This document shows, in pieces, positions 31,223-57,311 of a stretch of 64,000 bases of DNA (position 1 is the stretch's first letter; each line of letters begins with the position of its first letter). The stretch lies in the NCBI RefSeq assembly GCF_003334305.1, contig NZ_QOWS01000007.1. One strand, written 5' to 3'. Source of the DNA: Escherichia coli. GTDB taxonomy: Bacteria > Pseudomonadota > Gammaproteobacteria > Enterobacterales > Enterobacteriaceae. The notes under the pieces were generated by a model. It was not told the DNA's origin and ran no database searches. It saw only the letters and a list, made by a program, of their open reading frames with translations. The position numbers were made by a program, and so were the translations under genes.

Positions 31223-31368
31223 AGATACCTCAACAATATATTCATTATAGAAATGATCGTAGGTGGTTCAGAGGAAGATTACCACAGGAAAGCGGGATGA
31301 AATGGCGGAGGAATTAAGGCTTCATGCCACGTTATATAATTTACGAATGTTAGAAGTAAAAGAGAATG

Positions 31369-31767
31369 TTAGCTCCAATCTTCTAGTCTGATTCCCGCCA
31401 CTCGCTCAAACTCTCGGGTATTGTTGGTAACCACAATCAAACCGCGACTGCGAGCATGTCCCGCTATCATCTGGTCAAAAGGTCCAACAGGCCTTCCCTG
31501 CCGGGCAAGCTCGGCCCTGATTTGCCCGGTATGCGTCGCAGCAGCACTATCATAATCAAGCACTTCCAAACGAGATACGAAACCTTCAATCACCGCCAAA
31601 TTGCGTTCTGGCATCTGACTTTTTTCTGCCCCATAGATAAGCTCCATCAATGTTACAGAACTTATACACATCCGGCCAGAATTCAGGTTAAACCGCTCTC
31701 TGACATGTACTGGTTTATTCTTAATAGTGAAAATACAGATATTGGTATCCAGCATGAATTTCAGCAT
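31369..31767 (-). CDS. vapC: PIN-domain ribonuclease toxin, VapC family (closest recalled relatives Shigella MvpA / Salmonella VapC, which cleave initiator tRNA-fMet)
   Basis: 132-aa ORF beginning MLKFMLDTNICIF with conserved PIN acidic residues; near-identical in my recollection to enterobacterial VapC/MvpA; 1-nt ATGA overlap with the upstream antitoxin ORF. Confidence 0.85.
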   Translation of the reverse strand: MLKFMLDTNICIFTIKNKPVHVRERFNLNSGRMCISSVTLMELIYGAEKSQMPERNLAVIEGFVSRLEVLDYDSAAATHTGQIRAELARQGRPVGPFDQMIAGHARSRGLIVVTNNTREFERVAGIRLEDWS

Positions 31768-31994
31768 CAGAATGATTCCCTTTCCTGCATTGCGGGTTGA
31801 TCACGGATATCCATAAAATCCGCACTCACATTTTCGCCATCAAACCAACTGTCCCAGGACTCACCGGCGGGAGTGATGATTCTTGTACGACCAATCGCAA
31901 TAATTTCTACTTTCTTAACATCCTCTGGCAGAGCGACCGCTTTCGGTAATCTGACGGCCTGACTGCGATTACTTAAAAATACAGTAGTTTCCAT
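31767..31994 (-). CDS. vapB: VapB-type antitoxin (AbrB/SpoVT/MazE swapped-hairpin DNA-binding domain)
   Basis: Track ORF is 88 aa; start chosen at METTVFLSNRSQAVRLPKAV (75 aa), preceded by a G-rich SD; stop overlaps the vapC start. Confidence 0.8.
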   Translation of the reverse strand: METTVFLSNRSQAVRLPKAVALPEDVKKVEIIAIGRTRIITPAGESWDSWFDGENVSADFMDIRDQPAMQERESF

Positions 31995-32060
31995 AGCCCC
32001 CCCTTTTTTGGGATATACGTCATGTATATACATATTGGCCTGTTATTACTTTCCTGTCAA
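31995..32060 (-). promoter_or_regulatory. Putative vapBC promoter/operator
   Basis: On the minus strand ttgaca (-35-like) precedes a 12-bp perfect palindrome atgtatatacat and tatac direct repeats directly upstream of the vapB start. Confidence 0.4.
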
Positions 32061-32148
32061 AGGGAGATAATGCGAAGTATTGTAGCGGGGGTATCGAAGA
32101 CATTTAGCCGGAGTACCCTCCGGCTAAATAAACAAGCAACCAGAAAAA

Positions 32149-56194: not shown

Positions 56195-56210
56195 TCGCAA
56201 ACGTTTGCTT
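56195..56210. promoter_or_regulatory. PurR operator (PUR box) of purMN
   Basis: tcgcaaacgtttgctt matches the PUR-box consensus at 14/16, about 65 bp upstream of the purM start. Confidence 0.6.

Positions 56211-56255: not shown

Positions 56256-57310
<1,055 letters not shown>

Positions 57311-57311
<1 letters not shown>

Follow-up and report, generated by a model that had tools for sequence, protein, structure and literature searches.

A predicted sigma-70 promoter and single operator of the chromosomal vapBC toxin-antitoxin operon in Escherichia coli

The window, by which we mean the whole stretch of 64,000 nucleotides analysed here, is E. coli chromosome with the minus-strand gene order bamC, purC, vapB, vapC, ypfJ and tmcA. 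On this strand, vapB (31767..31994) encodes a 75-aa AbrB/SpoVT-type antitoxin and repressor, and vapC (31369..31767) encodes a 132-aa PIN-domain tRNA(fMet) endonuclease and co-repressor. The operon is bicistronic, and the vapB stop codon overlaps the vapC start codon at 31767. The vapBC locus is found in about 1,616 of the 5,426 complete E. coli genomes (~30%). A literature search on this chromosomal locus returned nothing specific to it.

Both gene identities are secured by family models. VapB matches NCBIfam NF040493 with 113.8 bits against a cut-off of 60, and VapC matches NF010285 with 291.3 bits against a cut-off of 143. RefSeq annotates vapB and vapC with the same coordinates in a 100% identical genome. 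The VapB of the window is 84% identical to the Shigella flexneri pINV VapB over the full length. Its residues 1–24 are identical to those of the S. sonnei VapB in PDB 6SD6, so the DNA-binding domain is conserved with the characterised repressors. The identity includes Q12, whose substitution lowers promoter binding (PMC11796401).

Upstream of vapB, the minus strand reads from 32070 to 31992 as TTATCTCC CTTTGACA GGAAAGTAATAACAGGC CAATAT GTATATAC ATGAC GTATATCC C AAAAAA GGGGGGG CT ATG. The -35 hexamer TTGACA is read directly from the sequence at 32060..32055, where an earlier note, made from the same DNA, had pointed out a -35-like ttgaca ahead of the antitoxin. It is invariant in the alignment with five plasmid vapBC loci as well as in eight E. 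coli alleles. The -10 hexamer CAATAT (32032..32037, minus strand) follows 17 nt past it and is also invariant across the eight alleles.

The -10 hexamer is weak, agreeing with TATAAT at three of six bases, and for this reason a simple consensus scan left the vapBC promoter uncalled. We assigned the promoter by homology instead, the scan having missed it. The Shigella promoter has the same geometry of TTGACA, 17 nt, CACAAT and then the first operator box. From the promoter geometry only, transcription is predicted to start near 32025.

Two 8-bp boxes lie just 3′ of the -10 hexamer on the minus strand. Box 1, GTATATAC at 32024..32031, directly abuts the hexamer and spans the predicted transcription start. 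Box 2 is GTATATCC at 32011..32018, and the 5-nt spacer ATGAC lies between them at 32019..32023. The dyad GTATATAC-ATGAC-GTATATCC thus runs from 32031 to 32011 with its boxes 13 bp apart, and we refer to it as O1. The flanking tatac direct repeats of the earlier note are present on the plus strand, where ATATAC occurs at 32013–32018 and again, 13 bp away, at 32026–32031.

Two start codons have been considered for vapB. One is the METTV start at 31994, and the other is that of an 88-aa ORF whose ATG at 32033..32031 falls, as had been noticed before, inside a 12-bp palindrome, at the junction of the -10 hexamer and box 1. The shorter start had been preferred on this ground, and three lines agree with it. 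The RefSeq product WP_000450524.1 begins at the same codon, the NF040493 model covers VapB residues 3–75, and the homologues start at the codon equivalent to METTV behind a GGAGG-type ribosome-binding site.

The 88-aa start, in turn, lies upstream of the predicted transcription start and has no in-frame conservation in the homologues. The equivalent ATG of the plasmid homologues, located in CAATGGATATAC, is out of frame because it is 40 nt from the true start. Hence, METTV is the right vapB start.

Between the dyad and this start codon lies an A6G7 homopolymer tract (31997..32009, minus strand). Its G-run, which ends 2 nt short of the ATG, serves as ribosome-binding site, and the homologues carry AAGGAGG at its place. 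The tract varies in length among E. coli alleles with A5–A8 and G6–G7, or is interrupted (AAAGAAG7, AAAGAAGGAGGGG). Such variation could alter the 5′-UTR length or the ribosome-binding-site strength, and the expression of the operon could differ from strain to strain.

A well-characterised relative is the vapBC operon of Salmonella enterica LT2, described by Winther and Gerdes in 2012. There, DNase I footprinting places VapBC on two inverted repeats. One, vapO1, overlaps the -10 and the other, vapO2, the -35, and VapC greatly assists VapB in giving these footprints (PMC3378870). The affinity is higher at vapO1. Excess VapC frees the complex from DNA in conditional cooperativity, and a 36-bp fragment of vapO1 alone shows it (PMC3378870). 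VapB is degraded by Lon and the induction is Lon-dependent (PMC3378870).

The LT2 and window operons share an AbrB-type VapB, a tRNA(fMet)-cleaving VapC and an inverted repeat at the -10. They differ in that only LT2 has a further operator, vapO2, over the -35. Our link to LT2 rests on the text of PMC3378870 together with the Shigella sequences.

The Shigella sequences allow a direct comparison. A 2024 mBio paper on the S. sonnei pINV vapBC lists its binding oligonucleotides (PMC11796401). Among them, SH176, named 'EMSA: OS1', is the reverse complement of CCCACAATAGATATACACAAGACATATCCACAT, and SH180 is ATCATAAACGTATATCCCTTTGACATATCCCG. An 80-nt S. sonnei promoter DNA is described as holding both operator sites (PMC11796401).

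The window aligns without gaps with this 80-mer, and so with the Shigella pINV promoter, from the -35 through box 2. Both have TTGACA, a 17-nt spacer and a 5-nt gap between boxes, while CAATAT in the window stands for CACAAT at the -10. Box 1 is GTATATAC in the window and in register with AGATATAC of the OS1 oligonucleotide. Box 2 is GTATATCC in the window and ACATATCC in the 80-mer, and each pair of boxes agrees at six of eight positions. The -35/-10 spacer sequences are unrelated, with only 2 of 12 positions identical. The Shigella pINV vapBC (mvpAT of pMYSH6000; structures 3TND and 6SD6) also differs in being plasmid-borne with both sites OS1 and OS2, whereas the vapBC of the window is chromosomal, lies between purC and ypfJ and has the -10-proximal site only.

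We also aligned the vapB upstream region of the window with those of Shigella flexneri pINV, Serratia pQE32, EPEC pMAR2, a Salmonella plasmid and a Pseudomonas megaplasmid. Two blocks are conserved. One, GTATATCC-CnTTG-ACATATCC, is wrapped round the -35 TTGACA, and the other, GGATATAC-N5-GTATATCC, lies just 3′ of the -10.

A scan of a genome collection with one genome per species returned 80 loci, none of them from Salmonella. The pattern ATAT-N9-ATAT occurs 104 times in 84 non-redundant vapB upstream regions, as compared with 8 times in 386 kb of flanking DNA. Measured from the start codon, these sites form two narrow classes, one at -72 to -80 and one at -33 to -38. The proximal class is O1 and the distal one, O2, is constrained in sequence by the overlapping -35 hexamer. 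O2 and O1 keep a constant distance of 39 nt across the vapBC loci.

We scored 81 independent vapBC loci with matrices for the two sites. Ranging from Enterobacteria and Pseudomonas to Desulfobacteria and Spirochaetes, they comprise 31 with O1 and O2, 31 with O2 only, 18 with O1 only and one with neither. Thus, promoters with one and two operators are mixed throughout the family.

The window has no vapO2/OS2-type site overlapping its -35. A search with the O2 matrix, whose consensus is GTATATCCCTTTGACATATCC, gave its 21-mer TTATCTCCCTTTGACAGGAAA a score of -2.7 or -3.1 bits, against at least 21.5 for true sites. What stands around the -35 is a degenerate remnant, TTATCTCC-CTTTG-ACAGGAAA (32050..32070, minus strand), in register with the Shigella GTATATCC-CTTTG-ACATATCC and matching it at 6/8 in box 3 and 3/8 in box 4. 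With about -3 bits, a second operator over the -35 of the window is rejected.

We do not treat O2 as an essential feature of enteric VapBC operators, because the two LT2 sites are independent and vapO1 alone suffices (PMC3378870), and because 18 of the 81 loci have only O1 and 31 only O2.

The earlier note had drawn attention to a perfect 12-bp palindrome. The palindrome ATGTATATACAT is indeed there at 32022–32033; a pattern search confirmed it, whereas a generic repeat finder skips such short-unit runs. It consists of box 1 with two flanking bases on each side, one pair belonging to the -10 hexamer and the other to the O1 spacer. Its standing as the operator unit did not hold, for perfect 12-bp palindromes occur in the window at the chance frequency, 19 being found against 20.9 ± 4.7 in first-order Markov simulations. 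The palindromy therefore carries no weight as evidence.

An operator formed by this palindrome itself, with one antitoxin dimer bound symmetrically and the nearby TATAC copies incidental, would accord with its perfection, its invariance in the eight E. coli alleles and its overlap with the -10 and start region. We nevertheless think it quite improbable. The family consensus of box 1 is GGATATAC, found at 25 of the 44 related sites and not palindromic, and the window has the variant GTATATAC of 5 of the 44. The palindrome arises because box 1 is this minority variant rather than GGATATAC and has AT flanking it on each side.

Moreover, the spacer bases 3′ of the equivalent box are unconserved across the family, and what the family conserves is a second box at a distance of exactly 13 bp. 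The oligonucleotides of the Shigella binding assays and the half-site mutants made in Salmonella likewise concern two-arm sites. In the matrix, O1 is a true inverted repeat across the family with no information in the five spacer positions, 9–13. In the window, box 2 is the same as the right-hand consensus box, and its exact reverse complement is the left-hand one, GGATATAC. The recognition unit supported by these data is hence the pair of 8-bp boxes and not the 12-bp palindrome.

The two-box dyad was scored with a weight matrix built from 44 proximal sites, the lineage of the window being excluded. The site at 32011–32031 obtains 25.6–29.5 bits, around the training median of 27.2, and the runner-up 21-mer of the 64-kb window obtains 10.4 bits. 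The pattern GKATATMC-N5-GKATATMC occurs once in the 64 kb even with two mismatches allowed, against an expectation of 0.04. The distance between the dyad and the start of vapB recurs in dozens of vapBC loci unrelated to this one. Two 8-bp GKATATMC boxes with a 5-nt gap are thus found in the window where the family has them, at the -10 and start site.

Could the repeats be mere chance in an AT-rich promoter, serving no operator function, with vapBC unregulated or regulated elsewhere? Such repeats are common near promoters, and the simple scan gave no strong promoter here. Against this, the dyad is unique in the window, scores like true sites in a matrix trained on independent loci and keeps the exact 23-nt distance from the -35 seen across the family. 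A chance origin of the dyad is excluded by the family-wide register together with the matrix scores, and we regard the whole reading as very improbable.

Least credible is that the repeats act in RNA, as a 5′-UTR hairpin for translation or stability, or serve a different host regulator: the two boxes are complementary and pair in the predicted fold, but the fold is no stabler than shuffled sequences (z = -0.23; 77 of 200 shuffles fold as well), Rfam gives no match at E up to 1, and the predicted transcription start inside box 1 would leave most of the left arm out of the transcript. With this z score and no Rfam match, we rejected the RNA-structure role.

Within E. coli, the eight alleles of the intergenic region show no variation in the -35, the -10 or either box, and the substitutions fall in the -35/-10 spacer and the operator spacer (ATGAC versus ATAAC). 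By our own estimate, finding no variable site in the 28 functional positions has roughly P = 0.04 with these eight closely related alleles. The conservation weakly supports the operator elements, given the close relatedness of the alleles.

Taken together, 32011–32060 is very probably the sigma-70 promoter and single operator of the chromosomal E. coli vapBC type II toxin-antitoxin operon. The suggestion that an autoregulatory operator lies here is upheld at the sequence level by the register with the Shigella OS1, the matrix score and the uniqueness in the window. The operator matches the one mapped in the Salmonella and Shigella relatives, so it appears real but ordinary, its mechanism being already established there. 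For this locus, homology with the two relatives is the basis for inferring binding, repression, conditional cooperativity and a start near 32025.

By this homology, one swapped-hairpin (AbrB-type) dimer formed by N-terminal domains of VapB would sit on each 8-bp box, and VapC dimers would link the two VapB dimers into a VapB4VapC4 hetero-octamer. Covering the DNA from the -10 edge to about +15 (roughly -6 to +15), the complex would block RNA polymerase and shut off vapBC initiation. The VapC bridge would break when Lon degrades VapB or when VapC is in excess. The complex would then leave the DNA and transcription would rise, which is conditional cooperativity.

In sequence, the Rickettsia felis VapBC2-DNA complex (PDB 3ZVK) is a distant relative of the VapB of the window (E = 1.3e-5). 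It presents an AbrB-type VapB in a hetero-octamer, in contact with two neighbouring sites of a single DNA. An analogy of mechanism only is offered by FitAB of Neisseria gonorrhoeae and MazE of E. coli, where type II antitoxins likewise bind to repeats within the promoters of their own operons. FitA has a ribbon-helix-helix fold, and the operator sequences of FitAB and MazE differ from that of the window. The FitAB complex has antitoxin dimers bridged by toxin dimers, as described in PMC3378870.

With a single site of the high-affinity type, regulation should, by homology with LT2, still be conditional-cooperative. The repression strength may differ here because the -35-overlapping operator is missing, and it is perhaps weaker than at the two-site promoters. 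Tentatively, the chromosomal E. coli vapBC lineage could be a natural single-operator variant, in which the -35 site was lost and box 1 is now a perfect palindrome, though we consider this history rather doubtful. If the number of operators determines how strongly vapBC is repressed and at which VapC:VapB ratio it switches on, such natural variants would make a test series for how operator architecture tunes conditional cooperativity.

These results provide a promoter, operator and start-codon map for an operon that ~30% of the complete E. coli genomes carry. They correct the recognition unit to two 8-bp boxes in place of the palindrome and settle the vapB start codon. They bring little conceptual change since the mechanism is established in Salmonella and Shigella. 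Only two points are mildly new: this lineage has lost its -35 operator, and the family as a whole mixes promoters that have one operator with promoters that have two.

The edges of the vapBC cassette gave several side observations. As a whole, the cassette of ~758 bp (about 31356–32113 of the window) is present between purC and ypfJ in some E. coli genomes and missing from others. The empty site of O157:H7 TR01 also lacks the right arm of a 12-bp hairpin just after purC (32102–32129). Because of this missing arm, the empty state seems to have arisen by deletion across a short TACT(T)C microhomology and not to be ancestral. The other, vapC-distal edge of the cassette carries a 9-bp direct repeat, GAATGTTAG, at 31345–31353 and 31364–31372 on the plus strand, and its second copy includes the vapC stop codon.

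The hairpin itself has a perfect 12-bp stem and a 4-nt loop. It immediately follows purC, and the vapBC -35 lies 41 nt downstream of it. The hairpin has no clear T-run on either strand, and this makes its role as an insulator of vapBC from purC read-through uncertain.

Far from the cassette, another perfect palindrome, GCAAACGTTTGC, is located at 56197–56208. A purM-like ORF (56259–57311, plus strand), divergent from a upp-like ORF, begins about 50 nt downstream of it. Presumably, this palindrome is the known PurR operator of purMN, which it resembles.
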